Assembly (NCBI GenBank): GCA_047639455.1
Contig: JBLINS010000002.1
Location: 226 to 64,225, forward strand
Reading direction: 5' to 3'
Origin: Candidatus Omnitrophota bacterium
GTDB taxonomy: Bacteria > Omnitrophota > Gorgyraeia > 2-02-FULL-51-18 > JAGOUK01
DNA length: 64,000 nucleotides
This document shows positions 3-41,081 of this stretch, in pieces. Made by a program: the position numbers and the translations under genes. Numbering within the stretch: the first letter of the stretch is position 1; every line of letters starts with the position of its first letter. Below the pieces are notes generated by a model, which ran no database searches, was not told the DNA's origin, and saw nothing but the letters and a program-made list of their open reading frames with translations.

Positions 3-3000
3 ATGTCAGAATTAGCTGCTCTGGATTCGGAGGTATTATATTCCTTAGCAAGAACCCAAGATGAGCAATCGCTATGGTTGTTATCCGACAACCTCAAGCT
101 TTTAACCAATCTCATCGACTTCAAATTACAAAGTGAAGACTATACCCAAATCATTTCTAGAAAAGATGTTTTTGACATCACGAAGATTGCCGGGTTTATG
201 AATCAAAAAATACTAGAATTAAAAGATTATCAAGAAAAAGCCCTATTCCTAAAGAATGACTTCAAAGATATTATTAAGTCAGCGCAAAAGTTTTATGAAT
301 TAACTTTAACGAGAGATCAGGCCTTTATTCAAAATGCGATCAAGAAAATAGAGGCAGACGATAATGAAGCGTCAATAATGATAACCGGCGGGTATCATAC
401 CCCCAATTTAAAAAAACAACTCAAGGCCCAGAATATGTCATTCATATCTTTAACGCCTACAGTAACGCATGAGACCAACCGCCCACTTTACGAAGAGCTG
501 CTCCTCAATCAAAGCGTTAGAATCACATCGCCCAATAACGCTAATTCCATGTCATTACTTCCAGTCAGAATGACTAATTCTCCATTATCGTTCTCGACAC
601 TGGCCGGAGAATTAAATGTGGATGTTTTGAGTAGTTTGATTGAGAGTTCGAGAATGGCGGATTATGTGGGTGAGTTTGATGATGGGAAGACCATGAAGGC
701 CGGTACGAGGGCTTATTCTTTTGAGGGGGGCTTGGGCGAGTTAAATAAAGAGTATTGGAATATGTTGAATGAAGAGGATCAGGTTAATATACACATATTA
801 CTTTCGCAGAATGCTGCTAATGAGGAAAATAAACGTTCTTATGTTTATGAATTAATTCATCCGTTTAAGTGGAACCGGATCATGATAACGGAGGTTCAAA
901 TCAAAGGTTTTTATGTGAATCAATCCCAAACACCCGAGAGCCATGCGGGGAGGGGGAATGTTACTGCGAATCTCTTTGGTCCATCAAATCCTGATCCTGA
1001 GGGTGGACTAACACAAAAAGGCGCTGTTAATGAACATAGAATAGCAACTCAATTCTATGCCGATCACAAGCCTCTAAATGGAACTTTCTTAAAAGTGCCT
1101 TTAGGATGGGGCACATTCCCAAATATCAATTATAAAGATCAGCCCTTGGGGTTTGTCATTATGGGTACGCCTAAATTCATGACACGTCGCATGAAAGTAG
1201 AGGACATGATTTTTGGCAAGATATTAGATGGCCTATATCTCAATGGTTTGGGTTTGCGCGACCTACACAATTCAGGTATTGGACATGGATTTTATCATCC
1301 TGGGAATATGTCTTATAATTTGATAGACACTCCCAGCTCAACGGCCGATGTCAATTTGGCTGGCATTCATGATCTTGATAGTGCCTTTTGGCTTGAAGAA
1401 AAAGCGACTCAAAACAAAACCACTGTTGAGCGCATTATTATGGCGGATTTAATATATGCCTTAGTGCAGCTAGTCGATTTATCTGCCGATATAAAACGAA
1501 TGGATGAAAGCGGTTTAATTAATGCCAAAACAATAATAGATGCCTTTTTAGAAGGTTATTTTGCCTACCTTGATGACGACGAACATATAGACGAGGTAGT
1601 TAATAACTCAGCTCGAATTTTTGTAGATTATTATGATTTTCATGTGACTCAAATGAGGATCCTGAAACGTGATTCAGATAAGGTATTAGCATTCTTGCCA
1701 ACCTATCAAAAATTCATTTCTACTCAAACAGATTTACGCCTAATCAATCTCGCCGAAAAAATAATCGGCCTTTATTTGGGCGCCAGACTAAGCGCAAGAA
1801 CACCCAGCACCAATCCCATCTCAGACCAAACCATCAACCAAGCGCCCAATCCTTTTGGAGTTAGGATGGCGGAGGATGAGGACTTGAATTTGTTTGGTCA
1901 AATGGCTAAGTATTATTGGGAAGAACACTTTCCATCTTCTGTGCAATGGCATGTGGCGGGTACATTGGGAGCTTTGGCAGCTATGGATATTGATGAAATA
2001 AGGTCTATGAATATGGAAACCTTCTTGTACAAGCTAGGTGATTCTCTCAAGATAAAAGCCGTGATTTTGGACAAAGACAATAGGCGCCAAATAATGGATG
2101 CTTATGAGGCTAAATTTGGGGTGGCTTTTGAAGATATGGACACCTTGGTCAAAAATATTTACACCGATGTCACTGGGCCCGAAGAACCTAATGCGGCAGC
2201 GCTTTGGCAATTAAAGCATTATGTTCAGGCTATTCGCAGTAATATGCACGACGCCTTGAATAGCACGACTATATCCCTCGATCTCTTCGGTCATATCGAG
2301 ATTATTATGAGCATGCGCAAGTCACCTTATAAAAAAGAGCTCTTAGATTATATGCAAGGAGTGGGGGACATTCTTACTAGTCATTTTGACATACAGCCAG
2401 GGGTGGAGACTTATATTGTTTTTAATCGCGACATGATGATTCAGCAGCATATGTGGCAAAAGTCTATTGGCGTTGTTATGTTTGCTCAGCGCATCGCACA
2501 GAACTTACATGAGTTGGATGATGCTTTTGAATATCATTATCGCTTGTCAGGCCCGGAGGTGATTAAATTAGAGCTATTATTTGCTTTTGCCTTAGGCGGT
2601 CAAGAATTTGTGGAAGAAACCATTCACTTACAAAGACGCTTACACCAAAGACTTCGTCGATCTTATGACGGTAGTAACGAGACGGTGAGTTTGGAAGACG
2701 TTTTTCGATCAGCTCAGAAGGGTGAATTATTAAAGGAATTTGGTATCACGCCTTTTGTGGATGGGCGCGCTATTCAATGGTCCAATTATTGGGCTAAAGT
2801 TCAAGCGGATGATTGGGAATCCTCTCAGCGCGAAGATTGGGGGCGTGTTAAATCGTTGGCTTTAGATGTGATTAGTTCCAAAGAGGATGGCAATCCACTA
2901 CCTACGCTTGTGCTTGGTGGTAGCCGTGATCAATTTGAAGCCCTATCTTTAATGCAATCATTGCCGGATTCATCATTGGCCCATGTCATGCAAGCAAGTC

Positions 3001-6000
3001 GAGCACATGCATTGGCTCCGCAATCGGACTCAGGTAATTCGAATGGTGGCCAAATTACTTATTTAAGAGTTTCGCCAGAATTATTAACACGCCATGATTT
3101 TGAAGAGTCGAGGCCCCGCGTTGCGATTGCTTTTCAATCCATTGAACACACACCCATTGAAGAGGTATTGAGCACGCTATACCATGTGGGTGAGGATGAC
3201 TTAGAAATGCTGTGGGTAGTTGTTCCATGGGATTCAGATAATGCTTTTGAACGTCGCCAAATGATGCAGCACTTGGATGCCGATGTCGCGATAGCCCAGT
3301 TTGGCATTGATTATTTGAAAGGTGACTTAGACGACGTCGACTTTATCCAAGCATTGAATCGAATCCAGCAAGGATTAAATTCGTTTGGATTAGATGATGA
3401 GCGAGCTCAGCGCTTTGAGTCAGACATAGCGTCAATTGAGCTTGATCGCATTGAACAGGAACTCAGCGCATTACAAATTCAATTGTCAGTTTATTTGATT
3501 CCTAAGAGAGATGCTTATAGAGAACGATATAAGCCGATTACTGCTTATTCAGCGAATGCTTTTTCTGATAGGCGGGAAATACGAAAATCGTTTAGAAAGT
3601 TTGGCTTCGATGTCTCAAAAATTGAGCGTATTCAAAACGGCGACGATTCTAGTCTATTTATTGTACGAGCCAAAAAAGGCGCGGAACATAACCGTCTTTT
3701 GTATGAGGGTGATGTAGTCCAATCAGAACCGCTGACTGTACCTGACTATGCAAAACTTGTTAAGCTGCCCTCGTTTCAAATAGCAGCCCAGACTAGCCCT
3801 CCAACACTGGGGGAAAGTTCTCCTGATCCAGTTCAAGATCTTCCGCAAAAGCTTAGACGGGTGAAGTCCTTGACTATTAAAAAAGCTGATCCAATCTTAA
3901 GTGCGGACGAAGAAAGGGCTTTGCGAGGTGTGTGGCCTAATGTATTTGACGTTAACGTCAAAAATTCCAAATTAATTCAATTGTCTCAATTGGGGTTTGA
4001 GGTTTTTGTTGGAGGCAAGATTGAATTAATGAAAATGTTTTCGTCAAACTTACATAAGAATAAAATTTTTAAACAGATCAATCGTGCTGATGTGAATCGC
4101 TTAGAAAATGCGATACAAAACGTAATTGATAATTTAAGACAACATAGAGGGGACGTACCTAGAGGTCTAGAGCGAGGGCTGATTGGAGTGCGTATTGTGA
4201 ATAAAGAAGGTACCCCGTATTTACAATTCGTTTATTTGGATAATGGGCCAGGATTTGTTAATAAGGATAGCCGATCGAGAGTCCCGATATCCATAGCAGT
4301 TATTCAAGGTGAGCCTGGAGACTCACTTGGTGGCAAGGGTACAGGATTTTTGGGAGTCGGAACAACAGTCGTTGTGGGCGCAGCCGATAATATAACTTAC
4401 CGCGAGTACCACAAGAGTGAATCTTTAGAAAGCTATGAAGGATTCGAATGGAGTAAGCGCACTCAATCGGATGATGTTGTCAAAATATTTCATGATGCTG
4501 AATTACCTGTTCAAAAGAGTTTCTCAGGCGTCCAAATAATTTGGGAGGTTCAGTCTCGATTTGTTGATGGTGTGGAGCTTGAAGTTGAGGTTGATAGCGG
4601 ATCAGTTGAAGTGGCCGAGAAAAGAGTTGAAGAATTGACTGGTGGTGCAGCAGAAGCTAGCCTTCTTTCGGAAACACCCTCGCAACGTCAATCTCGACAT
4701 CAAAGATTTCGAGATAGCTTAATAAGAATGGAGATTGCTCCAGCTAAAGCTGCATTAATTGTAAATTTTATTGAGAGTGAATATATTTCGCACTTTCCTT
4801 GGTCGGTCCCATTAAAATCAATCGATTCTTTTCTGGAGCAATATATTCTCAAATTCTATTCAAATAGTTTAAGCACCTTCGTTGATGATCTGGGAGAAGT
4901 GGAGCTTCGCGAATATATTGAATCTGAAGTTGAGAAAAGTGTTTATGGAGAGGACGAGTCGGGTGACTCAATGGCTGCAAGGACGGCTGCGCCGCGTGAG
5001 GCCGAGGGCGAGAATCGGCAAGTTGTGGAGAGGGCATTGGATAGCGTGAGAAACTTGGAAGGTGTGGAAGTCATTGTCGGTGGTGTGAAGGGGGATATTG
5101 CAAGTGGGGATAAAGATGTTTTGGATATAGTCGATGAGCGTGGCTACGTTATAGAGCCTTCTCAGAAGGCAATGCAAAAGGAAGTCCATGCTCAAGGTCT
5201 TTGGCATCGTGTGGCGCATGTATATGTATTTACTCCGGACGGTCGATTGATTTTGCAAAGAAGATCTTTAGCCAAGCCTTTGTCTCCAGGCAAATTGCAA
5301 GTGTCCGCAAGTGGACGCGTGAATGCCGGAGAGTCTGCATTGGACGCTGTCCTCCGCGAAACTGAGGAAGAATTAGGCATTAACTTCTGGCCTGAAGAAT
5401 TGATTCGCATAGGCAAAGAAAATGGACTTAGACGATCGTATGATATTTCTGGTGGGGGTGCGAATAATGAATTCATCACAAGTTACGCAGTTAAACTGTC
5501 GAGTTCAGCCCAAGTAGATCAAATATCCAAAAAGTATAATTTATTAGAAACCCAAGATCTCTGGATTCTGCCTTGGGATACATTTGTGTCGACTGTAAAA
5601 AATGACAAAGACAAATCCATTTTTTCTAATAGCCTTCACGGACTTATTCACAACCCAGAATTATTGCAACAATTAACCGAGAGCCAATCGGACATGGATT
5701 CGACGAGCGGAGGGAGCTCTTTAGATGAAGATCGTGATGTTGGTGGGGTGCGGATGAGTCGGGAGGTTGAGCCGGATAGATTTTTATATCCTATGGCAGG
5801 AACATTATTTATGCAGCCAAGAGATTCAAAACGTGTGGATAAAAATTCATATGATGGTCAGTTTAGGAATGTGGGGCTAAACTTATTAGCAAACTCCGCG
5901 AATCCTATTTCAGGGTTAATTGATCAAGAGATAAAAACTAAAGGTCATATTATTGTGGCCGATATTGGAGCAGGCCGTCAATTGGCGCTAATGGAAGCCA

Positions 6001-7697
6001 AACAAGAATTTGGAGACCAGATCACGACAGTGGCAGTGGACGTGGAGAATCATTTAGAAAGGTTGCAGCCTGATTATATAAGCAATGTCGGCAAGAGGTT
6101 GGGCGTAGAATTGGACGAAACCCATCGCCCTGATTTTATACTTGCACCTTCGCGATCTGTTAAATTCAATGAACCACCAGACATCATTCTCGCTATACGG
6201 TCACTGCCATATGAAGAGGATCCGATGCTTGGATTTGAGAATCTATATAATCAATTAGCGGTTGATGGCACGTTCGTTGCCAGGTATTACCCTGATTTGC
6301 TCAAAAATTTTGATCCTTCAGGAAAAAGCAATTTTGATGAGCCTGATTGGCTATTTAAAGCGTTAACAGAATTAAAATCTAAAGGATTAATTGCCGGGGA
6401 ATTTAGAGCAGGCTTTGTTTTTATTAAAAAAATGTCAGCTAAACAAATCCGTATTAATTTGGAACGCGATGAAACGCGTATTAAAGTTCACCGAACCCAG
6501 CACAATAGCCTTGTTCGTGGAGATTATAAAATCACAGATGGCCATGAAGAGCTGGTGACTATCATTGATGATTCTAATCCACCAGGCGATGCTCCTAAAG
6601 GTGAGGCTAGGATGGCCAATCGAATTACGTCATTTTTAGATGACGAACTTGTCACGCAACATTTTGTAGATAGTTTAAAAGACTATAGTAATGCGGGCTC
6701 CGGGGATGAATTGCCAATATTCTTATATGGACTTTATTTGCAGCGGAATAAGTTCGACGGTAGGCATACGCTGCCATTAGGCTCAAGTCTCATAACACCT
6801 AAGGCGCTTCGTGATGAAAACGGAGAAATTACTTTATATTTAATGCCGGTGGGCACGCCGCTTGATCTTAGCCCGGAAGAAACCATGCTTAGCTCCATAT
6901 TCTTTGTCAAACTTAATGATGCTAGAGACCTTGTCCAAAGCTACCAGCATGATACAAAAGTTTTAGAGCAGAAATATGTACAAGGGAGTGCCGTGGCATA
7001 TCAATTAGAGCTTCGTTCAGCCCGACGAGATTTTGTTAATGATAAGCTTGGGTCAAAGGTATTTTCTTCTAAACGAACTGTGCCTAAAGCCGTTCATATT
7101 TTGGAATCCGCTTATAGTGCTGATATGGATGCCTTAGACATAGAGCAGCAACTGGATTTATTAATCCCTACATTGAAGCATATACATCAAGCGGCTCCTG
7201 AAGTGACTTTTTATTTGGACAAACGTTTTGCCCAACGCAGTTCAAGGGTTGAATACCTATTGAATAAATATAAAGTGAATGATTTTATTCACATTGGTGA
7301 CCCAATTGAATTAGCCGTGATCACGCTTGGTTCACTAGAAGCGGGTATTGGTATTCATATCGACATCAACCCAATTGAGGCTGATGAAATTCCTATGGGT
7401 TTGGCGAGCGCTCTATACCAAGGTATTGTTGAGGCAACTGCCTTAGTTGATATAGGCACACAAAAAATCGATTTTGATATAGTCGATGAAGCGGTTATTA
7501 GCGAATTAAGGCGCAGGCGCAATCAATACCTTAAAGATTCTATAGACGATAATATAACTTATTTACGTATATTAAGCGGCACGGCTCCCAAATCGTTGCG
7601 TCAAAAATTCCTATGGAGTATTGCTCAACAAATCCCCATTGAATTCATCATCCAGGCCGCGCAACGCACCATTAAATATGTGCAGAGATCTACTTAG
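3..7697 (+). CDS. Giant multidomain protein, 5'-partial (more than 2564 aa). It shares an N-terminal module with the second giant ORF and has kinase-like, GHKL-ATPase-like, NUDIX and SAM-methyltransferase-like motifs.
   Basis: Single uninterrupted ORF from the window edge to 7697. Translated motifs: HGFYHPGN...IHDLD (nt ~1290-1385), DNGPGF and GxGTGFLGVG (nt ~4238-4362), perfect Nudix box GRVNAGESALDAVLRETEEELGI (nt ~5309-5377), IVADIGAGRQ (nt ~5950-5977). aa ~125-170 are clearly homologous to aa ~485-530 of ORF 33741..41081. Confidence 0.75.
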   Translation: MSELAALDSEVLYSLARTQDEQSLWLLSDNLKLLTNLIDFKLQSEDYTQIISRKDVFDITKIAGFMNQKILELKDYQEKALFLKNDFKDIIKSAQKFYELTLTRDQAFIQNAIKKIEADDNEASIMITGGYHTPNLKKQLKAQNMSFISLTPTVTHETNRPLYEELLLNQSVRITSPNNANSMSLLPVRMTNSPLSFSTLAGELNVDVLSSLIESSRMADYVGEFDDGKTMKAGTRAYSFEGGLGELNKEYWNMLNEEDQVNIHILLSQNAANEENKRSYVYELIHPFKWNRIMITEVQIKGFYVNQSQTPESHAGRGNVTANLFGPSNPDPEGGLTQKGAVNEHRIATQFYADHKPLNGTFLKVPLGWGTFPNINYKDQPLGFVIMGTPKFMTRRMKVEDMIFGKILDGLYLNGLGLRDLHNSGIGHGFYHPGNMSYNLIDTPSSTADVNLAGIHDLDSAFWLEEKATQNKTTVERIIMADLIYALVQLVDLSADIKRMDESGLINAKTIIDAFLEGYFAYLDDDEHIDEVVNNSARIFVDYYDFHVTQMRILKRDSDKVLAFLPTYQKFISTQTDLRLINLAEKIIGLYLGARLSARTPSTNPISDQTINQAPNPFGVRMAEDEDLNLFGQMAKYYWEEHFPSSVQWHVAGTLGALAAMDIDEIRSMNMETFLYKLGDSLKIKAVILDKDNRRQIMDAYEAKFGVAFEDMDTLVKNIYTDVTGPEEPNAAALWQLKHYVQAIRSNMHDALNSTTISLDLFGHIEIIMSMRKSPYKKELLDYMQGVGDILTSHFDIQPGVETYIVFNRDMMIQQHMWQKSIGVVMFAQRIAQNLHELDDAFEYHYRLSGPEVIKLELLFAFALGGQEFVEETIHLQRRLHQRLRRSYDGSNETVSLEDVFRSAQKGELLKEFGITPFVDGRAIQWSNYWAKVQADDWESSQREDWGRVKSLALDVISSKEDGNPLPTLVLGGSRDQFEALSLMQSLPDSSLAHVMQASRAHALAPQSDSGNSNGGQITYLRVSPELLTRHDFEESRPRVAIAFQSIEHTPIEEVLSTLYHVGEDDLEMLWVVVPWDSDNAFERRQMMQHLDADVAIAQFGIDYLKGDLDDVDFIQALNRIQQGLNSFGLDDERAQRFESDIASIELDRIEQELSALQIQLSVYLIPKRDAYRERYKPITAYSANAFSDRREIRKSFRKFGFDVSKIERIQNGDDSSLFIVRAKKGAEHNRLLYEGDVVQSEPLTVPDYAKLVKLPSFQIAAQTSPPTLGESSPDPVQDLPQKLRRVKSLTIKKADPILSADEERALRGVWPNVFDVNVKNSKLIQLSQLGFEVFVGGKIELMKMFSSNLHKNKIFKQINRADVNRLENAIQNVIDNLRQHRGDVPRGLERGLIGVRIVNKEGTPYLQFVYLDNGPGFVNKDSRSRVPISIAVIQGEPGDSLGGKGTGFLGVGTTVVVGAADNITYREYHKSESLESYEGFEWSKRTQSDDVVKIFHDAELPVQKSFSGVQIIWEVQSRFVDGVELEVEVDSGSVEVAEKRVEELTGGAAEASLLSETPSQRQSRHQRFRDSLIRMEIAPAKAALIVNFIESEYISHFPWSVPLKSIDSFLEQYILKFYSNSLSTFVDDLGEVELREYIESEVEKSVYGEDESGDSMAARTAAPREAEGENRQVVERALDSVRNLEGVEVIVGGVKGDIASGDKDVLDIVDERGYVIEPSQKAMQKEVHAQGLWHRVAHVYVFTPDGRLILQRRSLAKPLSPGKLQVSASGRVNAGESALDAVLRETEEELGINFWPEELIRIGKENGLRRSYDISGGGANNEFITSYAVKLSSSAQVDQISKKYNLLETQDLWILPWDTFVSTVKNDKDKSIFSNSLHGLIHNPELLQQLTESQSDMDSTSGGSSLDEDRDVGGVRMSREVEPDRFLYPMAGTLFMQPRDSKRVDKNSYDGQFRNVGLNLLANSANPISGLIDQEIKTKGHIIVADIGAGRQLALMEAKQEFGDQITTVAVDVENHLERLQPDYISNVGKRLGVELDETHRPDFILAPSRSVKFNEPPDIILAIRSLPYEEDPMLGFENLYNQLAVDGTFVARYYPDLLKNFDPSGKSNFDEPDWLFKALTELKSKGLIAGEFRAGFVFIKKMSAKQIRINLERDETRIKVHRTQHNSLVRGDYKITDGHEELVTIIDDSNPPGDAPKGEARMANRITSFLDDELVTQHFVDSLKDYSNAGSGDELPIFLYGLYLQRNKFDGRHTLPLGSSLITPKALRDENGEITLYLMPVGTPLDLSPEETMLSSIFFVKLNDARDLVQSYQHDTKVLEQKYVQGSAVAYQLELRSARRDFVNDKLGSKVFSSKRTVPKAVHILESAYSADMDALDIEQQLDLLIPTLKHIHQAAPEVTFYLDKRFAQRSSRVEYLLNKYKVNDFIHIGDPIELAVITLGSLEAGIGIHIDINPIEADEIPMGLASALYQGIVEATALVDIGTQKIDFDIVDEAVISELRRRRNQYLKDSIDDNITYLRILSGTAPKSLRQKFLWSIAQQIPIEFIIQAAQRTIKYVQRST
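5309..5377 (+). other. Nudix box (GX5EX7REUXEEXGU) embedded in the giant ORF
   Basis: The translation GRVNAGESALDAVLRETEEELGI fits the canonical Nudix signature exactly. The upstream ...WHRVAHVYVFTPDGRLILQRR... is typical of a Nudix fold beta-strand region. Confidence 0.7.
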
Positions 7698-10753: not shown

Positions 10754-11389
10754 ATGGAAACCCTATCCCAAAATGCCGCCATACTTTTGATTGGCTGGGC
10801 ATCAGGTATTAACCTATACTTAACAGTGGCCTTAACAGGCATTTGTGGTCGCATGGGTTGGCTAACTTTGCCAGATAGCATGGACATTGTTCAAAGCCCT
10901 GTCATTATTGGTATAGCTATATTGCTTTATGCGGTTGAATTCTGCGCGGACAAAATCCCTGTGGTTGATTCAGCCTGGGATTCTTTGCACACCATAATTA
11001 GGCCAGCAGGTGCTTTGGTTATGGGATTTTTGGCCGGCTCAGAATATGGCCCTATAGCCCAAACGGTGATTGGTTTATCCACGGGTGCTATAGCTTTGGA
11101 AACGCATACGTTTAAAGCCACTAGTCGAGCGGCCATTAATTTGTCGCCAGAGCCGGTCACAAATATAGCCGCTTCCGTGACTGAGGACGTGGCTGTTGTG
11201 AGTGCATTTTGGTTTTTTATGCAACACCCCATCATCACTTCAATTGTTTTAATATTAACCCTAATAGGCGCTTTTTTTGTCATTATCTCCTTATGGAAAT
11301 TTGTGGCGGGATTATTTGGCGGAAAAAAAATATCCCCCGACCAATCACGGGAATTACGGGACCAGGTCCCAGAGGGACAGGTCCAGTGA
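10754..11389 (+). CDS. DUF4126-like integral membrane protein
   Basis: Multi-TM hydrophobic ORF. The stop codon lies in the loop of the 11354-11434 palindrome. Confidence 0.55.
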   Translation: METLSQNAAILLIGWASGINLYLTVALTGICGRMGWLTLPDSMDIVQSPVIIGIAILLYAVEFCADKIPVVDSAWDSLHTIIRPAGALVMGFLAGSEYGPIAQTVIGLSTGAIALETHTFKATSRAAINLSPEPVTNIAASVTEDVAVVSAFWFFMQHPIITSIVLILTLIGAFFVIISLWKFVAGLFGGKKISPDQSRELRDQVPEGQVQ

Positions 11390-11934
11390 ATTCGGAAGCA
11401 ACCGGACCTGTCCCTCTGGGACCTGGTCCCGTAAAGGCTACTTTTGGAGCAGGTTGTTTTTGGGGTGTAGAAAAAATATATGCTAAATTAAACGGTGTTC
11501 AAACCACATCCGTGGGTTATATTGGCGGCGCATCTGTTAATCCTAGTTATGAGGATATATGCACGGGCCGCACGGGACATGCTGAAGCAGTTCAAATAAC
11601 TTTTGATCCTCAAGTCATATCATATGGCGAATTGGTGAGTACTTTTTTTCAGTGGCATGACCCGACTACATTGAATCAACAGGGTCCGGACTGTGGATCA
11701 CAATACCGCTCCGCTATTTTTTATCATAATGAAGCGCAAAAAGAATATGCACATAAGGCCGTTGATTTATTAAATGCGACTAATATTTATCAAGCCCCTA
11801 TCACTACTCAAATTGAGGCGGCGCCCGAATTCTATTTAGCCGAAGACTATCACCAAGCTTATTTAGTCAAAAACCCCATGGGGTATTGCTCACATCGTTT
11901 GCAATACCCAAAAGTTGCCCAAATACTGCCTTAA
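11293..11934 (+). CDS. msrA: Peptide methionine sulfoxide reductase MsrA
   Basis: The GCFWG active-site motif and the downstream MsrA-typical sequence are present. The only in-frame start is the ATG at 11293, so the Gly/Pro-rich N-terminal extension is encoded by the palindrome. Confidence 0.8.
   Translation: MEICGGIIWRKKNIPRPITGITGPGPRGTGPVNSEATGPVPLGPGPVKATFGAGCFWGVEKIYAKLNGVQTTSVGYIGGASVNPSYEDICTGRTGHAEAVQITFDPQVISYGELVSTFFQWHDPTTLNQQGPDCGSQYRSAIFYHNEAQKEYAHKAVDLLNATNIYQAPITTQIEAAPEFYLAEDYHQAYLVKNPMGYCSHRLQYPKVAQILP
11354..11434. repeat. Perfect inverted repeat (31-bp arms, 19-nt loop) inside the overlapping coding regions
   Basis: 11354-11384 (TTACGGGACCAGGTCCCAGAGGGACAGGTCC) is the exact reverse complement of 11404-11434. 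The arms contain nested GGACC-A-GGTCC sub-palindromes. Confidence 0.85.
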
Positions 11935-33740: not shown

Positions 33741-36700
33741 TTGGGTATACTTCCTTATATGTTTATATATACGAATTCTATATATACAGTATCCCGAATA
33801 ATTAAATCTATTAGTCTATTAATCATCTTTTTGATGACTGTGGAACAATTATGCTTTGCTGCTCCCGTGGGCCAATTAGGGTCATCCTTGACACAATTAA
33901 TAGGGTCTCAGAACAAGCCTCAAACGCTCCTTTCTTTAGTGGATTTGGTTCAAAACCCAGTTAACATTAAGCCCACCTTTAAATACGCCCATGTTCAGAA
34001 TATTCATCAAGGTACGAATGGAAAATTAATCATTCATATTCAGGATGCGCATGCAAACTTTTCTGGTCAAATGAATTTGGCCAAAACTATAGATGACTTA
34101 ATGACCAAATATGGAATTAAATTGGTATTGGCAGAAGGTGGCGAAGGAGACGCTTCACTTTCAACTTTACGATCAAAAATGACCACAAGAGATATGGATG
34201 CAGCAGCTAATCGTCTACTTATGGATGGCATGATAGCTGGTCATGAATATTTGGATTTGACATCCAAACACAAAATGAAATTAGTCGGCATAGAAAATAA
34301 AGAATTGTATTTGAGCAATTTAAAGGCCTATAGCGAATTAACCCAAACAAGAAAAAAAATCACGGCTCACTTGCACAAAATAAAAGTGGCCATTCAACGC
34401 TTGAAGAACAAACTTTATTCCAAAGATATATTGGAGTTAGAGTCCATAGAGGAATTCAATAAACAATTTGAGGCTTTGCTCCAATTAAATGATGGGCGCA
34501 TTCAATTAAGCACATACCCACAAATGCAATTATTAAAGAATCTTAAATCAGAAGAAAAGCTAATTGACTTCGATAGACTTAATCTCGAAAGAGAAGCTCT
34601 TTTTGACCTATTGTCCGCAAAAGGTCAAAGCGAAGCTTTGAGGAAATTAGTCCAAGACATGAGGCAAGGCCAGTCTTCTCAAATCACACAGTCCTTTAAT
34701 ATGCGCAAGCTATTTGAATTAGCTCATCAGAATCAAATCCAAATGCAAAGATTCTACAATCTCCAAAAATACAATGATTATCTAAAAGAATTTGTCCAAT
34801 TGGATTTTAATCATCTGTTGGAAGAAGTCGATGAATTTCAAACCCTGCTCTACCAGAACTTATTCCAAGGAGAGAAAGACCCATCTATCTTGAGGGCAAT
34901 AGACGTGTATAAAGATCTTTTAGATAAAGCCACCCAAATTCAAATGACGTCACGAGAGTTTCAAACCTTTATGGCGAATGAAGAGAAATTCGACGAAGAA
35001 GCCTGGCAAGCCTTTTTGAACCAAAAGCTATTAGACTTAGAATATTACGACAATCTCATCCCTTTTAAAGAAGAACTCACCGAATTCAAGCAAAAACTAA
35101 AGAATTTTTACCGACTAGTGAACCAAAGGGATGAAGCCTTTATCCAAAATATAAGCAAAGTCCTAAACCAAGAAGATGAACAAGCGGCCTTCTTAGTAAC
35201 TGGAGGTTACCATACCCAAAACCTCACCAAGCTTGTGCAAGCAGAGGGCTACTCATTCATCACCCTAAGCCCCAAAGTCACTTCAGAAACAAATCACCAA
35301 CAATACGAATCTCTTCTACTCAAAGAATTGAACCAATCAATCTCTAGTGGCGCTCAAACAAAGTCACCCATGCAAGTCATAACCACAACCCTAGTCCAAA
35401 CCCTATCCCGCATGTCTCAAGTTCGCATCCCCGAATACGCTAGAAGATTCTCTAATGAAAGATTTGGTCAAGTTGCTCAAATGATTGTGGACCCACGAAG
35501 TGCTTCCAGGATGACTAATTATCCAAACAAGCATATATTTAATGATTACGCTTCTATGATTCAGTGGCTTAAGATTGAGTTGGGAATGGACGATGAGCAA
35601 ATTGGCGTTGTGATCGTAGATGGTCCTGCTGCTTCTGGAAAGAAAGCTGTAGCGAAACACTTGTCGGATAATGGTGAGGTTGCTCATTTCAAAATGGATG
35701 GTTTTGCGTCTCAAGCTATGAGAAACGCACTGGCTCTGGCATTAGGTTTCTTTATAGGCCCTCTCTTATTGGGTCGTTTTTTGGATCGATTCATATTGAG
35801 GTTTTTTCATGACCATGAGGCTATCTTAGATCTTAAGCAACAAATAGCACATGCTATAAAACAAGTGGAAGAATCGAATGCCGAATCCGTAGAGGTTTCT
35901 CCACAGTATGGATTCAAAAATCTGGATCCAGAGTCTGCTATCAAAGCAATGCAGGATTCAAAGCAAACTGTAAAGAAGAGCTCCACAATTATTGTTTCTG
36001 GTCTTAGGGGAAAAGAGCTTCTTGGGACGGGCATGCCTCAGCAGCAATCCATATTGGTCACAACCGATTGGAACACCACATACAATCGTTACCAGGATCG
36101 ACAGACACAAGGAAATTCAAAACAATTTTGGCCATGGGCTTTAATACGTCAATTCACTGCTAGTTTTAAGTGGGAAGAGTCTTTCTTTGCCCGACGTCAA
36201 AACGAATATGATTTTGTAATCGACTCAACCAACATCGACCGCCCTACCGTGATTGATCAAAGAAACCTAACGACTGACTCAACGAGAATGAGCCCTAACT
36301 CAGTACCATTTGAAGGTAGAGCGCGAATGTCGAATCCGAACAATGATTCTTTACCTTTACCAGCTGGTGTTGATGGATATATTGTTGATCCTGGTGCAGA
36401 GGGGTCAGGCCGTGACTTGCCGATAAGTAAAAGTGGAGCGCGGATGACGAGTTCTTCCACTGAGCATGTAGCTGAAGAGGTGCCCGACCCTTTGGCTACA
36501 GGCGAGGATGGCGCAAGCTTAGCGGAAAAAAAGAAAGTTACGGGCAAGCGACCTGGCAGGGTTAGGCAAGTAGGTCACGTACCACTTGAATCTAAGAATT
36601 TTAATTTGATTATGGAATTTATTAAGAGATATCGCAAGATTGATTCCGACACCATTGAATATTCTACTTATTTAAGGGGAATCAATCCTCTCTTAGAAAC

Positions 36701-39700
36701 ATTACGACAAGAACCCAGGGCTCGAAGAAAGGAAACCAGAGCTCTCTTAGCCTTAACAGAAGGTTTTATCCAAAAGAAAAGCCATATTCAACCCACGCTA
36801 GATGAAATCATGGCCGTTGCCGTAGCTTCTTTTTCTATACCTTTAAATTCGCACCTCTTGGTGATTTATGCTTTAACATTAAAAATGCTTGATATGACAG
36901 GCAAAGATTTACTGAATGCCCAACAAATCAGTCAATTTGAAAAAGAATTACACGCATTAGTAGATCTTTATTCTTCCAAACATCCTCAGGAGAAAAATAT
37001 TAACTTAGCAACAATCATCAGACAAATTCTCTCAATACAAATGAAGGATAGTAAATCAAACTTATTATCACAGTCGCAATGGCACTTCTCTTCTGCCCTC
37101 CAAAGCGAGTTAGCCAAAATTGAATTACAAGAAATGGGTCAAGCATTACGACACGACCCTTCTGAATCTATTGGGCGAATTCAAACCTCTCATCACGCTT
37201 TAAAATTGGGAGCTCAAAATAATCAAATTGCCAATGTCGTTGATTGGACTCATGGATTAATGAGTCAGGATCATCGGGTTCGCAGAATGATTCGATCTCA
37301 TGAAGCATCCGAAATTCCTGCTAAATCCTCAATACAAAATGCGCTTCAACCAACAGTTAATGCAGTTAATGATAATTTGGACACATTGATTTTATGGACT
37401 CTAGAAGCCCTTAAAAAAGATGACTCAAATAATCAAACACGTGATAAGAAAAAACCCTTAATCGCTCAAACTGGTGTATCTCGATATGGACTGTCCTGCA
37501 AATCTGGCTCCGCTTGCAATCAAGCTGCGGCTCGGTGGAATGATGAACACACCCTCGATGACATTCTCGAATCAAGGGAATTGTTAGAAGAATTTAGTAT
37601 GCATATTGGTCAAACAAATCAAAGCCACGCCTCATTTACGCTTAACTACGGTCAAATATACGAACATACATTGCAACGCTTAATATACTTAAGAGCTGCG
37701 GACTTTCCATTCGATGCCTCGGATTCCGATGCCGAAAGCATTTCTGCGAATCTGGATCAGATCAAGTCGTTATTGCCGAAAGAATATTTCAAGATTTATA
37801 AACTCATCGTTTCAGGTACTGCAAGCAATTCACTAAAGGCGATCCAATTAATGGAGGCTAGTCAGTGGCTGAACGAATCATTGTTAGCAGAACTGTATCA
37901 ATATATTTCCAGAGATTTATTAAGCAAGGTTTTTGTTCACCAAGATGAAGCTTCTATTGAGGAAATAAAAATAATTTCTAAAGACAATAATGATGGAATC
38001 ATAGTGAACGTTAATCCAAACGGTTTGGCCGAAGTCTTCATTGACAATAGACAATATTTTGATAATCCTCGGATGATCACGATACCATTGCCCGATCACG
38101 CTGGTTCACAAGTGAGACTAAGAGCTCAGCGCGATTCAAGATCATTCTTATGGCTACACGCATTTTCTGTGAGTGAGGACTTATTCTTAGGCCAATTCTT
38201 TTACGACTCGGAAAGGCGTGAAATGTTACATGAAAAAAAACACTTTAAGTCCAGAGTCCTCAAAGGTCATGAGGGAGTTCCTGATATGCCCGACTCGGTA
38301 CCCGTAACTATGCAGAAAAATGAAATGGGTAATTATTTTGCATTTAAATATGAGGACAAAACCTATAACCTTTCACGCCCCTATGAGGCTCGTTATAAAG
38401 GTATACGCGATGATGCTGATCTGCAAACAATTCATATACGAATCATCCGTCAGCAAAACAAGGACTATGTTTATGGCTTCTTAAATCCGGACGACGAATT
38501 AGCCTCGGATGCTTTTGCCAAATGGTTATGGGTACCCAGCAAGGACGGTGGCCGTCATCGATTTGAAGCTGAATACTTTTATGTTCCTGGAACTAAATTA
38601 TGGTTTTACCATTTACTCCGCAATAATATCACTACCTCTAGAATCTACCAGGCTAGGATTGATTTAGATGACAAAGGACAAGCTATTATTCACAAAGAAT
38701 TAAAATTACGCTTAGGGGATATGTTTAAAGGTGGGGGCCAGAATATGCCTTCAGAAGCCCTTATGACAAACACATTAGCTGACCCATCGCGCGTGGATAT
38801 TTATGATGCACCTGAATCTGAGGACAAAAAAGAAAGAGGCAGTTTTGATCCGCGTCAAATGAGATTCATTGCTAGTAAATATTATTCTAAACCTCGCAGC
38901 ATGTTCCAGCGGGATTGGCAAATCGTAACGCAAAGACATAATGAATTTCTATCAGACTCCAATCTCATAGTTCCTAACCCTGACCCCGTTGTGGTTAGAA
39001 TGCCCATTGGTGTTGATACTAGAGCCAAAACCGGTCACCCCAAGCATATTATTGATACACCCACAGGCAAGCCCATTACATTCGAAAAAACCGAACATGT
39101 TGATGAGCTTGTTATGATTCGCTTTAATCAATTCAAAATGAATGGAAGAATACAGCGTGGCATTGAGCTCATCGCGCTGTCAGAAGACTTTGTACCCAAG
39201 TTTTTGATAAGACGCGGTTATTATCACGCACCGGGTGATGAATTTAAATGGCAAAGCCCTCGCAGGAGAAAATCTTATACCATTGAAGAAAGATATCAAA
39301 TTGAAGAAGTCCTGATTCATACAGGTTATCTAGGATCCTTCGTTCATCATATGACAATCAAAGCGGATTATCTGACTCGCGAATTTGTTCAAATGGTGAA
39401 TAATGAATTGCAATTAGCTCAAATAGATGTAGAAAAAGTACTTGATGAATACAATCATGTCTTAACTGAATTGGACAAAATTAAGGCATTCCTACTCAAG
39501 CAAAATTGGGAATCTTCAGAAATGGATAAACACTTTGGCCGAATCAGTGATGTCATTAGCCCCGTTTATCGTCAAGCCATCGATCAAGTTCAAAGGAATC
39601 AGCAAACTTATCCCATTGGAACACGTGTCAGGTTTAGGCATCGCAAAGCGACTGTGGAGGGTTATCAATCAATAGAGGGTGGAGTAATTCTTATTACCCT

Positions 39701-41081
39701 AAAAATGGATGACATGAAAAGAAAGCCAAATCTTGAGGACCGCCTCGAAACCTATTCCCTAAGCTCCATAGTCGAGGAATTGCAATTTCTTCCCATTCAA
39801 CAGCACCCAACCCAATCAGACACCACCACTCACCCGCCCTCGAATGATGACCACGCAAGATTAGCCGCACCGCAGTTAACTTCATCTGAGGATTCAGGCC
39901 CCAACTTGGCTACATTTGATAGCAGAGCAACAAGATTAGCTGGTTCTAATAGCATTTCTAAGAAATCAATTGTTGGAGAGGATATCTTTAAGCAAATATT
40001 ATTAGCTGTGGATTTGGATTTACCGGTGAGGGGGGCTTTGGTGCCGGAATTGAAGTCTTTGTTTGTGCGGTGGTTTGGCCGGGCACGTGTAGAAGAGGAT
40101 GTTTATGCGATTGGTCATTCTGGTAATCGCTTTTCTCGGGTGAGGATATATTCTTTGGGAGCTAAAGGCTACCATGTATTGGATGAGGTGACGGGTGAGC
40201 GTCTTAATATTTCTTTGGAAGAAATAGCGGCTTATAGATTGGATTTGAAGAAGAATGGTTCACAACCAGAGTCAATTATGCAAAGACTAGGAGATGCCGA
40301 CTTTAGTTATAATGCCTTGGAATTGAAGTCTAGTATTAAACGGTCTCTAGCTCTTCTTAGACAAGGCATTGGGGTTGTGGCCGCATTACCTAAAAAGCTA
40401 GTGCGTTTTAAGATGGTGACTGATTTTGCGAGCATTAAATCTGCTATTGGGCAGAATATGGAATATTTGTATGTGATGAGTGAGGATAGGCGTTTTAGTC
40501 AAAGAGCGTCACATGTCTTTATTGGAACCGTTGAGGACCAATTGGCATTGGATGCGTATAGAGAGAACTTGGATGGAGATGCGGACTTCTTAGGCTTTGT
40601 GAATCAAATTCAAATTGTGGGTTTGGCGGATATTCTACGTAATTATGATGTCAATTCTAGTCCTCGAATTGTCTTTGCGAGCACACCCAAAAGTTTTGAA
40701 CGGGCTTATGCTTCGAATAAGGACTTTAGACGCTTAGTGGACGTGGATTTGGTTTCAATAGCGCCTACCAGCGCGGCAGCGAATAATGAGCTATTGGATA
40801 TGCTGAATTTATTGAATACAGCTGATATATTGGCTCATTGGGCACAATTATCACAAGAAGAGCAAGCTGAGCATCAAGTGCATATTGGACGCTATCTGAA
40901 ACGTGCTTATCAAATTGATGGGTCTAGAGAGCATATTGATTCCCTAAGCTATGCTTCAGGCTTTGAGGAAGACACACACTGGTATCAACGGATTAGCTTG
41001 CCACCCTTAGGGCGCTATGTGGATGCTATATTTCATAGCTTTATTCCCACGATTCGCAATGCTGTATTGGCCTCAGCTTAG
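33741..41081 (+). CDS. Giant protein (2446 aa) with an N-terminal signal/TM segment, a module shared with the first giant ORF, and a Walker-A-like motif
   Basis: Uninterrupted 7.3-kb ORF with a hydrophobic N-terminus (IIKSISLLIIFLMTVEQLCFAAPVG). aa ~440-530 are homologous to the start of ORF 3..7697 (FLVTGGYHTQNL...FITLSPKVTSETNHQQYESLLL). GPAASGKK at nt 35622-35645. Confidence 0.8.
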   Translation: MGILPYMFIYTNSIYTVSRIIKSISLLIIFLMTVEQLCFAAPVGQLGSSLTQLIGSQNKPQTLLSLVDLVQNPVNIKPTFKYAHVQNIHQGTNGKLIIHIQDAHANFSGQMNLAKTIDDLMTKYGIKLVLAEGGEGDASLSTLRSKMTTRDMDAAANRLLMDGMIAGHEYLDLTSKHKMKLVGIENKELYLSNLKAYSELTQTRKKITAHLHKIKVAIQRLKNKLYSKDILELESIEEFNKQFEALLQLNDGRIQLSTYPQMQLLKNLKSEEKLIDFDRLNLEREALFDLLSAKGQSEALRKLVQDMRQGQSSQITQSFNMRKLFELAHQNQIQMQRFYNLQKYNDYLKEFVQLDFNHLLEEVDEFQTLLYQNLFQGEKDPSILRAIDVYKDLLDKATQIQMTSREFQTFMANEEKFDEEAWQAFLNQKLLDLEYYDNLIPFKEELTEFKQKLKNFYRLVNQRDEAFIQNISKVLNQEDEQAAFLVTGGYHTQNLTKLVQAEGYSFITLSPKVTSETNHQQYESLLLKELNQSISSGAQTKSPMQVITTTLVQTLSRMSQVRIPEYARRFSNERFGQVAQMIVDPRSASRMTNYPNKHIFNDYASMIQWLKIELGMDDEQIGVVIVDGPAASGKKAVAKHLSDNGEVAHFKMDGFASQAMRNALALALGFFIGPLLLGRFLDRFILRFFHDHEAILDLKQQIAHAIKQVEESNAESVEVSPQYGFKNLDPESAIKAMQDSKQTVKKSSTIIVSGLRGKELLGTGMPQQQSILVTTDWNTTYNRYQDRQTQGNSKQFWPWALIRQFTASFKWEESFFARRQNEYDFVIDSTNIDRPTVIDQRNLTTDSTRMSPNSVPFEGRARMSNPNNDSLPLPAGVDGYIVDPGAEGSGRDLPISKSGARMTSSSTEHVAEEVPDPLATGEDGASLAEKKKVTGKRPGRVRQVGHVPLESKNFNLIMEFIKRYRKIDSDTIEYSTYLRGINPLLETLRQEPRARRKETRALLALTEGFIQKKSHIQPTLDEIMAVAVASFSIPLNSHLLVIYALTLKMLDMTGKDLLNAQQISQFEKELHALVDLYSSKHPQEKNINLATIIRQILSIQMKDSKSNLLSQSQWHFSSALQSELAKIELQEMGQALRHDPSESIGRIQTSHHALKLGAQNNQIANVVDWTHGLMSQDHRVRRMIRSHEASEIPAKSSIQNALQPTVNAVNDNLDTLILWTLEALKKDDSNNQTRDKKKPLIAQTGVSRYGLSCKSGSACNQAAARWNDEHTLDDILESRELLEEFSMHIGQTNQSHASFTLNYGQIYEHTLQRLIYLRAADFPFDASDSDAESISANLDQIKSLLPKEYFKIYKLIVSGTASNSLKAIQLMEASQWLNESLLAELYQYISRDLLSKVFVHQDEASIEEIKIISKDNNDGIIVNVNPNGLAEVFIDNRQYFDNPRMITIPLPDHAGSQVRLRAQRDSRSFLWLHAFSVSEDLFLGQFFYDSERREMLHEKKHFKSRVLKGHEGVPDMPDSVPVTMQKNEMGNYFAFKYEDKTYNLSRPYEARYKGIRDDADLQTIHIRIIRQQNKDYVYGFLNPDDELASDAFAKWLWVPSKDGGRHRFEAEYFYVPGTKLWFYHLLRNNITTSRIYQARIDLDDKGQAIIHKELKLRLGDMFKGGGQNMPSEALMTNTLADPSRVDIYDAPESEDKKERGSFDPRQMRFIASKYYSKPRSMFQRDWQIVTQRHNEFLSDSNLIVPNPDPVVVRMPIGVDTRAKTGHPKHIIDTPTGKPITFEKTEHVDELVMIRFNQFKMNGRIQRGIELIALSEDFVPKFLIRRGYYHAPGDEFKWQSPRRRKSYTIEERYQIEEVLIHTGYLGSFVHHMTIKADYLTREFVQMVNNELQLAQIDVEKVLDEYNHVLTELDKIKAFLLKQNWESSEMDKHFGRISDVISPVYRQAIDQVQRNQQTYPIGTRVRFRHRKATVEGYQSIEGGVILITLKMDDMKRKPNLEDRLETYSLSSIVEELQFLPIQQHPTQSDTTTHPPSNDDHARLAAPQLTSSEDSGPNLATFDSRATRLAGSNSISKKSIVGEDIFKQILLAVDLDLPVRGALVPELKSLFVRWFGRARVEEDVYAIGHSGNRFSRVRIYSLGAKGYHVLDEVTGERLNISLEEIAAYRLDLKKNGSQPESIMQRLGDADFSYNALELKSSIKRSLALLRQGIGVVAALPKKLVRFKMVTDFASIKSAIGQNMEYLYVMSEDRRFSQRASHVFIGTVEDQLALDAYRENLDGDADFLGFVNQIQIVGLADILRNYDVNSSPRIVFASTPKSFERAYASNKDFRRLVDVDLVSIAPTSAAANNELLDMLNLLNTADILAHWAQLSQEEQAEHQVHIGRYLKRAYQIDGSREHIDSLSYASGFEEDTHWYQRISLPPLGRYVDAIFHSFIPTIRNAVLASA

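Follow-up and report, generated by a model that had tools for sequence, protein, structure and literature searches.

A Nudix Module of Hydrolase Type and a Methyltransferase Module in a Modular Omnitrophota Giant Protein with a Recurring Frame and a Linker Motif

Introduction

The 'Archaeovorin' giant proteins described from Omnitrophota carry glycosyltransferase, methyltransferase, NUDIX hydrolase, HATPase_c, and phosphoglucomutase domains (West-Roberts et al., 2023, bioRxiv 10.1101/2023.11.21.568195). Proteolytic processing of such giants by C39 or S8 domains is suspected; their cleavage points are not known, which blocks structure prediction as well as functional dissection (West-Roberts et al., 2023). 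More recently, a class of 'multi-enzyme metabolic clusters' with methyltransferase, HATPase_c, and NUDIX content was defined, and 94% of the long Omnitrophota proteins were found to possess a signal peptide or transmembrane helices (Nielsen and Lui, 2026, bioRxiv 10.64898/2026.06.07.730766). Here we analyze G1, a giant open reading frame (ORF) at the beginning of a stretch of 64,000 nucleotides (nt) from a Candidatus Omnitrophota bacterium (contig JBLINS010000002.1, positions 226 to 64,225 of the forward strand; the window in what follows). An earlier reading of the sequence alone had reported a Nudix box and an S-adenosylmethionine (SAM)-methyltransferase motif inside this ORF and, adding a kinase-like and a GHKL module, had proposed it as a multi-enzyme polyprotein candidate.

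A second group of proteins is relevant for comparison. MARTX toxins carry several effector domains on one polypeptide, and an internal protease, which cuts after Leu, frees the effectors by cutting the linkers. We report that a Nudix module and a class I methyltransferase module probably form part of the cargo of G1, which is predicted to be exported and belongs to a family of giants with a fixed frame and a short linker motif at module borders.

Results

Extent of the Giant ORF G1

G1 is cut at its 5' side by the contig end (Table 1). Its N-terminally incomplete NCBI copy, MFT7636318.1 (P0001; 2,639 amino acyl residues (aa), labeled 'partial') from a Candidatus Omnitrophota metagenome-assembled genome (MAG), is 100% identical. 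The full-length protein of 2,901 aa is encoded in an independent Logan assembly (P0078), which agrees with P0001 in 2,638 of 2,639 residues; residue n of the window corresponds to residue n+337 of the full-length protein. The MAG ACI9CF carries the gene as two pieces on two contigs, 99.9% identical to P0078. Public copies of the gene from other MAGs show 99.9% identity; they thus represent the same population, provide no evolutionary information, and were rejected as informative orthologues.

In a Pfam scan of G1, only the Nudix domain passes a threshold. A first protein search showed that G1 shares just its N-terminal ~170 residues with other proteins, which are giants of 2.5-4 thousand amino acyl residues (kaa) containing UDP-glucose pyrophosphorylase, phosphoglucomutase, or starch-synthase domains. 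A PDB sequence search with aa 1-1666 gave nothing significant, and segments of G1 scanned over GTDB genome and JGI metagenome contigs found no relatives.

Table 1. Features of the giant ORFs G1 and G2 within the window (residue numbers of G1 are those of the window).
Feature	Position (nt)	Strand	Residues (aa)	Basis and remarks
G1 giant ORF	3..7697	+		frame 3; 2,564 codons in window; stop 7695-7697; 5' end cut by contig end
N-module, C-terminal third (TIKI/TraB/Ere/RRSP-like fold)	3..557	+		homology ends at aa ~182
N-module invariant Arg, TRDQAF	309-326	+		alignment
N-module GGYH	387-398	+		alignment
Linker PVRMT	561..575	+	187-191	directly past end of N-module homology (aa ~182)
Linker SSRMA	645..659	+	215-219	motif match
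Kinase-like module	660..1778	+	motifs 428-460	by eye; HGFYHPGN 1284-1307, IHDLDS 1365-1382
Linker GARLS	1779..1793	+	593-597	motif match
Linker GVRMA	1857..1871	+	619-623	motif match
GHKL-like stretch	4089..4358	+	includes 1367-1451	by eye; N-box ENAIQNVIDN, G1 box DNGPGF, G2 box GGKGTGFLG
Possible degenerate linker AARTA	4974..4988	+	1658-1662	putative; acidic low-complexity stretch ahead of Nudix module
Nudix module	4989..5744	+	1663-1914	Pfam NUDIX match aa 1735-1825 = nt 5205-5477
Segment ahead of Nudix box, GLWHRVAHVYVFTPDGRLILQRRS		+	1732-1755	translation of G1
Nudix box GRVNAGESALDAVLRETEEELGI	5313-5381	+	1771-1793	G1771, E1777, R1785, E1786, E1789, E1790, G1792 (then I1793)
Linker GVRMS	5745..5759	+	1915-1919	5 residues ahead of methyltransferase homology
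Class I SAM-methyltransferase module	5760..6602	+	1920-2200	HMMER homology
Methyltransferase peptide HIIVADIGAGRQ	5946-5981	+	1982-1993	translation of G1
Methyltransferase motif I, VADIGAGRQ	5955-5981	+		alignment with relatives
Methyltransferase beta2 acidic residue in AVDVEN	6024-6050	+		alignment with relatives
Methyltransferase motif IV, PPDIILAIRS	6174-6203	+		alignment with relatives
Methyltransferase LAVDGTFV	6255-6278	+		L-x-x-D-G strand
Linker EARMA	6603..6617	+	2201-2205	between end of methyltransferase homology (aa 2188) and C-module start (aa ~2226)
Conserved C-terminal module (C-module), ~340 aa	6678..7694	+	~2226-2564	HMMER homology
G2 giant ORF	33741..41081	+	2,446 in total	signal peptide, complete N-module, linker motifs; N-module paralog of G1
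G2 N-module	33918-35420	+		IQDAH 34038-34052, GGYH 35202-35213
G2 linkers ASRMT, STRMS, RARMS, GARMT, HARLA, ATRLA	within 33741..41081	+		motif match, six sites

The Nudix Module Is Predicted to Be of Hydrolase Type

The translation of G1 contains both the Nudix box and the methyltransferase motif, as the sequence-only reading had it. That reading had placed the Nudix box at nt 5309-5377, 4 nt off its actual position (5313-5381), and had described it as satisfying the consensus GX5EX7REUXEEXGU at every position; the box fits this consensus, except that the first U (a bulky aliphatic residue) is Thr1787 in G1. In the alignment, Escherichia coli YfcD has Ala at the same position. The Nudix assignment itself is supported, since Pfam PF00293 matches aa 1735-1825 with 40.6 bits (E 3e-10), above its gathering cut-off of 21.1, and relatives in the PDB and in NCBIfam agree. 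Also, PHROGs assigns the segment to MutT/NUDIX hydrolases (E 6e-6).

Of the solved structures, E. coli YfcD (2fkb, E 2.5e-11) comes closest to the Nudix segment; type-1 isopentenyl-diphosphate isomerase (IDI; E ~3e-7) and DR0079 come next. Among the NCBIfam models, YfcD ranks first (NF011922) and IDI second (NF002995, 44 bits versus a cut-off of 127; TIGR02150, 22.5 versus 105.8). Although YfcD is the closest family, the Nudix module does not belong to the YfcD equivalogs, as it reaches 54.3 bits against an equivalog cut-off of 152. In type-1 IDI (E. coli numbering), Cys67 and Glu116 are catalytic, whereas His25, His32, His69, and Glu114 are metal ligands. When the Nudix module of G1 is aligned to IDI, Cys67 is replaced by Ser, His69 by Arg, and Glu114 by Asn, and Glu116 and His32 are retained; the R-E-x-x-E-E hydrolase signature, degenerate in IDI, is intact in the Nudix module. 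The absence of Cys67 and His69 together with the intact REX2EE box indicates that the module is of the hydrolase type, and on these sequence grounds it is placed in the YfcD/IDI-like clade as a member with hydrolase features. The name 'isopentenyldiphosphate isomerase', which G1 bears at NCBI and IMG, is therefore probably wrong. With its box intact, the Nudix module would be expected to hydrolyze a nucleoside-diphosphate-X substrate. ADP-ribose, NAD, and the mRNA cap had been considered earlier, and the closest relatives (YfcD, DR0079, and IDI) point to none of the three. A word-indexed homologue search with the Nudix and methyltransferase region returned one plant Nudix protein only, and a Nudix-box pattern search over all sequences collected detected no further Nudix module.

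The Methyltransferase Module Belongs to a Divergent Family

A HMMER search with aa 1924-2564 against a library of 1.84 billion proteins splits the query into two independent modules. For the first of them, aa 1924-2188, there are 24 relatives confined to the methyltransferase segment (E 1e-13 to 1e-4), the nearest one being the Omnitrophica protein P0042 with 45% identity. Many of these relatives are of stand-alone size (260-330 aa), and nine of the ten short relatives scanned match Pfam Methyltransf_11, _12, or _23 at E<=0.001, with the curated cut-off being reached by eight. In the alignment of the family (A2), the middle Gly of motif I (G68), the Asp of beta2 (D90), and the Asp of motif IV (D137) are invariant, and the family profile, when compared to solved structures, matches BioC (8x8i, E 7e-6), then Tam, 1y8c, and other class I methyltransferases. 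This transitive and profile homology upholds the methyltransferase call. The motif, which had been given as nt 5950-5977, occupies nt 5946-5981. Stand-alone versions, whose existence in relatives had been considered before, are represented by the proteins of 260-330 aa, which are metagenomic singletons. A PDB sequence search with aa 1924-2564 gave nothing significant, and the methyltransferase profile finds no match in 80 loci that encode the N-terminal module described below. The methyltransferase module is predicted to bind SAM, and it and the Nudix module would constitute separately folding enzyme modules of G1.

Signal Peptide and N-Terminal Module

The signal peptide of G1 and the half of its N-terminal module (N-module) that contains I-Q-D-A-H and the conserved Glu are encoded upstream of the window; both are present in P0078. 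The N-terminus of P0078, FFSEQLAVAAPGP, consists of positive residues, a hydrophobic core, and then an A-x-A-like site, a pattern that is conserved in the family, and no second convincing transmembrane or hydrophobic segment was found in G1. The G1 protein is thus presumed to be exported. The signal peptides of the family (P0078 aa 1-30, P0043-P0051, and G2) also end alike, with the hydrophobic core followed by (E/Q)Q-x-x-(Y/V/F)-A-A-P, which suggests a common export or processing route.

The N-module has a length of ~500 aa, and an alignment of 35 sequences shows no variation at D43-A-H45 (within I-Q-D-A-H), E73, R404, and G-G-x-H432. Essential residues of RRSP are Glu3900, His3902, Glu3930, Arg4001, and His4030 (PMC6254334). 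The spacing from His to Glu is 28 residues in both the N-module and RRSP, and the spacing from Arg to His is 28 in the N-module and 29 in RRSP. Judged from these residues, the N-module keeps the complete 2His/2acid (+Arg) catalytic set of the TIKI/TraB/Ere/ChaN/RRSP superfamily. An AlphaFold2 model calculated with the 35-sequence alignment (predicted local distance difference test, pLDDT, 91.9; predicted template modeling score, pTM, 0.87) displays the core fold of this superfamily, and the N-module is classified as hydrolase-like (TIKI/TraB/erythromycin-esterase/RRSP-like), its function being a prediction. A PDB sequence search with the N-module profile gave nothing significant.

Relatives of the N-module number 446 in GTDB species genomes; taxonomy and architecture are taken from the 80 that were listed. 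Nearly all of these 80 are from Omnitrophota MAGs, with several copies per genome. Apart from stand-alone copies, which are considered in the Discussion, the N-modules of the 80 head ORFs of 1.5 to >3.9 kaa. Many GTDB records with an N-module (L001, L003, L004, L006, L007, and others) bear the title 'uncultured Planctomycetia bacterium', and the title of one names Candidatus Auribacterota; the explanation is either a labeling artefact of the depositing pipeline or an occurrence of the N-module beyond Omnitrophota.

A Linker Motif at Module Borders

The most frequent 5-mer of protein P0002 is GARLA, with nine copies, and in the giants nearest to G1 the top 4-mer is GARL, ARLA, or ARMA, with as many as 16 copies in 3.9 kaa. 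From 145 sites, a logo of the form (S/A/T)-G-A-R-(L>M)-(A>S>T) was obtained; the flanks are not conserved, and in them hydrophobic residues are scarce and Ser, Thr, Pro, and Gln are enriched. In the genome encoding G1 and G2, a second giant ORF of the window, the motif has the relaxed form x-R-M/L-(A/S/T). G1 contains 5 sites versus 0.47 expected (P 0.0005) and G2 contains 4 versus 0.44 expected, and the other ORFs of the window have 3 sites in 13.4 kaa. In 16 related loci, 132 sites occur in 51.8 kaa of module-bearing ORFs versus 5 sites in 41.8 kaa of neighboring ORFs, an enrichment of 21-fold, and the N-modules of these loci are free of sites (0 in 9.2 kaa). All synonymous codons for Gly, Arg, and Leu occur at the linker sites, among them CTA and CTT, neither of which is a start codon. 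This synonymous variation implies that selection acts on the peptide, and on the same grounds a DNA repeat and an internal start site were rejected as explanations of the motif.

The linker motif sits at module borders that are set independently by homology. In P0042, GSRLS at position 96 and GARLA at 411 enclose a methyltransferase module at 116-379; in P0054, GARMA at 935 and again at 1206 enclose the module at 961-1172; and the homologous methyltransferase module of P0052 is likewise bracketed by the motif. In G1 and 5 other giants, the motif is found ahead of the C-terminal module. Sites are often paired, at a distance of 20-50 residues from each other. Distant N-module clades do not have GARLA and contain other recurring motifs at domain-sized spacing, namely (V/A)RDTAMQMP (5-6 copies), xRGDSATGEMP (7 copies), and DASGAAPQ (4 copies), in L052 (aa 853-2829), L033 (aa 788-2164), and L036 (aa 1149-2576), which suggests lineage-specific 'punctuation'. 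The stand-alone N-modules L013 (544 aa; TVRMA) and L041 (519 aa; GSRMF) have a motif-like end ~50 residues past GGxH, and the first linker motif of the giants is located at the same place.

A Conserved C-Terminal Module and the Frame of the Family

The second module delimited by the HMMER search, the C-module, forms the extreme C-terminus of other N-module giants of 2.9-7.0 kaa (up to 7,011 aa). The N-module is present in all five full-length C-module giants (5/5) and in two giants with the methyltransferase module. In profile searches the C-module has 0 Pfam matches and 0 significant PDB matches, and its profile finds 0 matches in the 80 N-module loci. The cargo of G1 and G2 has no match in these loci either (phmmer and hmmsearch). 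The G1 family, with members of 2.4-7 kaa, possesses a frame consisting of a Sec-type signal peptide, the N-module of ~500 aa, and variable, unrelated cargo, and in a subset that includes G1 the conserved C-module of ~340 aa closes this frame.

Other Modules of G1, the Second Giant ORF, and the Surroundings

Motifs of the kinase-like and GHKL modules proposed earlier are readable by eye in G1. The GHKL-like stretch reaches 13.7 bits with Pfam HATPase_c, under the cut-off of 26.4. The kinase-like motif has Phe where kinases of the HGDLHPGN type carry the catalytic Asp, so this module may be a pseudokinase, and neither Pfam nor a PDB sequence search supports a kinase fold in G1.

G2 has the signal peptide and the N-module in common with G1 and nothing else. 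It has no Pfam match, neither G1 nor any of the 80 related loci contains cargo related to that of G2, and a homology search did not detect the C-module in it. Two internal hydrophobic segments are located around aa ~663 and ~1023 of G2, and its translation probably begins with the Met of codon 7 rather than with the listed TTG. Among the other giants, the ORF L016:9869-21592 (>3.9 kaa; 16 GARL motifs behind a signal peptide) contains an HTH_3/Xre-type DNA-binding domain at aa 3617-3673 (69.9 bits), an odd site for DNA binding if the protein is exported.

Neighboring genes in the window encode BamA, DnaB, GlnA, UbiD, prolyl oligopeptidase, and further housekeeping proteins. A phage origin was considered due to the near-exclusive coding on the + strand and the two giant ORFs, and was rejected because of these neighbors; a comparison with 50,697 phage records gave no nucleotide match and two weak Nudix protein matches only. 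Long ORFs of the window (1-64000) lie almost exclusively on the + strand, 29 of the 32 bins of 2 kb have a positive GC skew, and the cumulative skew climbs steadily; the window thus probably belongs to a single replichore, its genes being co-oriented with replication. The sole negative GC skew is found inside G2 (34-40 kb), where AT skew is also high. As listed, the ORFs 10754-11389 (+, DUF4126) and 11209-11934 (+, MsrA) overlap by 180 nt; the MsrA domain begins at residue 76 of its TTG-initiated ORF, and the real start of MsrA is probably further downstream.

Discussion

A Modular Giant Predicted to Be Exported

The best overall explanation, which we consider likely, is that the Nudix hydrolase and the methyltransferase are cargo of an exported, modular Omnitrophota giant with a fixed frame and a linker motif; the domain identities and the frame can be accepted as likely to very likely. 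G1 combines an Omnitrophota host with TIKI-like, Nudix, methyltransferase, and possible GHKL modules behind a signal peptide, and would be a small member of the published multi-enzyme giants. The earlier proposal of a multi-enzyme giant ORF and polyprotein candidate agrees with these giants and with the modular frame of G1. The linker motifs might in addition be processing sites, cut in cis or in trans, possibly by the TIKI-like N-module, and cutting would set the enzymes free beyond the cytoplasm or inside prey or host cells. Since a freed Nudix hydrolase and a freed methyltransferase need nucleotides and SAM, a prey or host cell is suggested as their place of action, as for MARTX effectors. 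This processing step is considerably more doubtful than the domain identities and is judged rather unlikely. Extending it to the whole group, so that GARL/MA and its equivalents RDTAMQMP and RGDSATGEMP would be processing sites of Omnitrophota giants, cut by the N-module in cis or by stand-alone copies in trans, and the giants true polyproteins, appears rather unlikely.

Several observations weigh against this interpretation. Regarding the modules, a single-sequence AlphaFold2 model of aa 1700-2195, covering Nudix and methyltransferase, has a mean pLDDT of 33.5; the methyltransferase segment obtains no direct match in the Pfam scan of G1, and the third glycine of its motif I is Gln. No G1 orthologue at intermediate divergence was found in the databases searched, including GTDB genomes and JGI metagenomes. 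As to the N-module, Pfam contains no model for it, with marginal ChaN matches alone, and Foldseek against the PDB yields no significant match (EreC with a probability of just 0.33), probably because a helical insertion of ~290 residues dominates the model. The TIKI superfamily also comprises esterases and haem binders, so that a protease function of the N-module is not implied, and about 20 of the 80 listed relatives are stand-alone N-modules of 480-620 aa without cargo. Finally, an exported SAM-dependent enzyme and an exported nucleotide hydrolase have no obvious periplasmic substrate, and cleavage at the linker motifs is itself a hypothesis.

As the main rival explanation, it is possible, if less likely than not, that G1 stays whole and acts as a tethered scaffold, on which Nudix and methyltransferase would work side by side on one polypeptide, the motif being the signature of a flexible linker, a docking or modification site, or a punctuation mark for folding. 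Such an uncut G1 accounts for the same domain evidence; it is in line with published work, which leaves the cutting of giants open, with the existence of non-proteases among TIKI-fold proteins, and with the occurrence of stand-alone N-modules. However, mere flexibility would not require a lineage-specific motif of five residues with unconserved flanks that is located at borders and often paired, and the N-module retains a complete catalytic set.

Less probable is that the N-terminus serves as an uncleaved anchor and the bulk of G1 resides in the cytoplasm, as a membrane-tethered metabolic cluster that acts on the metabolites of the cell itself. SAM, ATP, and nucleotide substrates are indeed cytoplasmic, and some predicted extracellular placements have been judged implausible (West-Roberts et al., 2023). 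Against such an improbable arrangement stand the conservation of the exported-signal-peptide pattern (FFSEQLAVAAPGP) across the family, the lack of a second convincing transmembrane segment in G1, and the share of long Omnitrophota proteins with a signal peptide or transmembrane helices (94%; Nielsen and Lui, 2026).

That the Nudix segment is a type-1 IDI, as its NCBI and IMG names have it and as the second rank of IDI among solved relatives and NCBIfam models might suggest, is very improbable given the replacement of Cys67, His69, and Glu114, scores well under the NCBIfam cut-offs, and a whole REX2EE box. It is hardly credible that the Nudix and methyltransferase motifs are chance matches or that the ORF is an artefact of assembly or gene fusion: beyond the Nudix domain G1 has no match over a Pfam threshold, but the Nudix and methyltransferase matches are significant, 8.7 kb are free of stop codons, the Logan assembly and the ACI9CF pieces reproduce the ORF, and the frame of N-module, cargo, and C-module is found again in other genomes.

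Significance

Nudix and methyltransferase domains in Omnitrophota giants are already on record, and in this regard the exported modular giant proposed here adds one further, smaller example. It also corrects a database name, as the Nudix module of G1 appears to be of the hydrolase type and not an isopentenyl-diphosphate isomerase. The linker motif, the TIKI/TraB-like module, and this C-terminal module are mentioned in neither West-Roberts et al. (2023) nor Nielsen and Lui (2026), and none of the papers in the collection searched ties Omnitrophota to the term 'polyprotein'; the frame (signal peptide, TIKI-like module, cargo, and C-module) and the linker motif are apparently undescribed. Together they render the question of cleavage testable, as the motif supplies candidate cut points that can be checked in existing proteomes, and it could guide the splitting of giants into modules for modeling or expression. 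If cleavage occurs, these ORFs would be polyproteins whose exchangeable enzymes are set free in the surroundings of the cell or inside its prey, a MARTX-like strategy assembled from different parts.

Comparison with Known Systems

The best sequence match of the Nudix module is the YfcD/COG1443 clade, to which type-1 IDI and Deinococcus radiodurans DR0079 also belong. The N-terminal extension, a conserved His ahead of strand 1, the LxxRR strand, and the Nudix box all align with YfcD, and both have a small residue at the first U position; the Nudix module of G1 differs from YfcD in its location inside a giant protein with predicted export. Like the class I methyltransferases BioC (8x8i) and Tam (2p35), the methyltransferase module has a motif I of the form D-x-G-x-G, an acidic residue at the end of beta2, a motif IV of the form D-h-h, and an L-x-x-D-G strand, in the usual order and spacing. 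It departs from them by the lack of a direct Pfam match and by Gln in place of the third Gly of motif I. Its family is divergent, unnamed, and metagenome-only, has a conserved N-terminal extension, and comprises stand-alone proteins (260-330 aa) as well as modules of giants. The N-module differs from the other members of the TIKI/TraB/PrgY/erythromycin esterase/ChaN/RRSP superfamily by its helical insertion of ~290 residues between Glu and Arg, and, among the 80 listed relatives, by its near-confinement to Omnitrophota and its multiple copies per genome.

Like a MARTX toxin, G1, for which export is predicted, would be an exported polypeptide that unites several unrelated enzyme modules, with short Leu-containing sites in unstructured linkers between them. 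Also, one of the MARTX effectors, the TIKI-fold endopeptidase RRSP, is a top structural match of the N-module. In contrast to MARTX toxins, Pfam detects neither RTX repeats nor a CPD cysteine-protease domain in G1, its candidate protease has another fold and is N-terminal, and delivery into another cell is hypothetical. The likeness therefore concerns a possible way of working and not membership.

In comparison with the published Omnitrophota giants, G1 is small, its 2,901 aa being below the limits of >90 kb per gene or >=30,000 aa (West-Roberts et al., 2023) and of >=10,000 aa (Nielsen and Lui, 2026). Where those giants have many transmembrane helices and reported C39 or S8 peptidase domains, G1 has a single hydrophobic segment and a TIKI/TraB-like N-module. 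G1 and its relatives nevertheless resemble them in many ways: they are from the same phylum, start with an N-terminal signal peptide, string unrelated enzyme domains on one polypeptide, share NUDIX, SAM-methyltransferase, phosphoglucomutase, starch-synthase, and, putatively, HATPase_c domains with them, and show an extreme sequence divergence with large parts that have no Pfam match.

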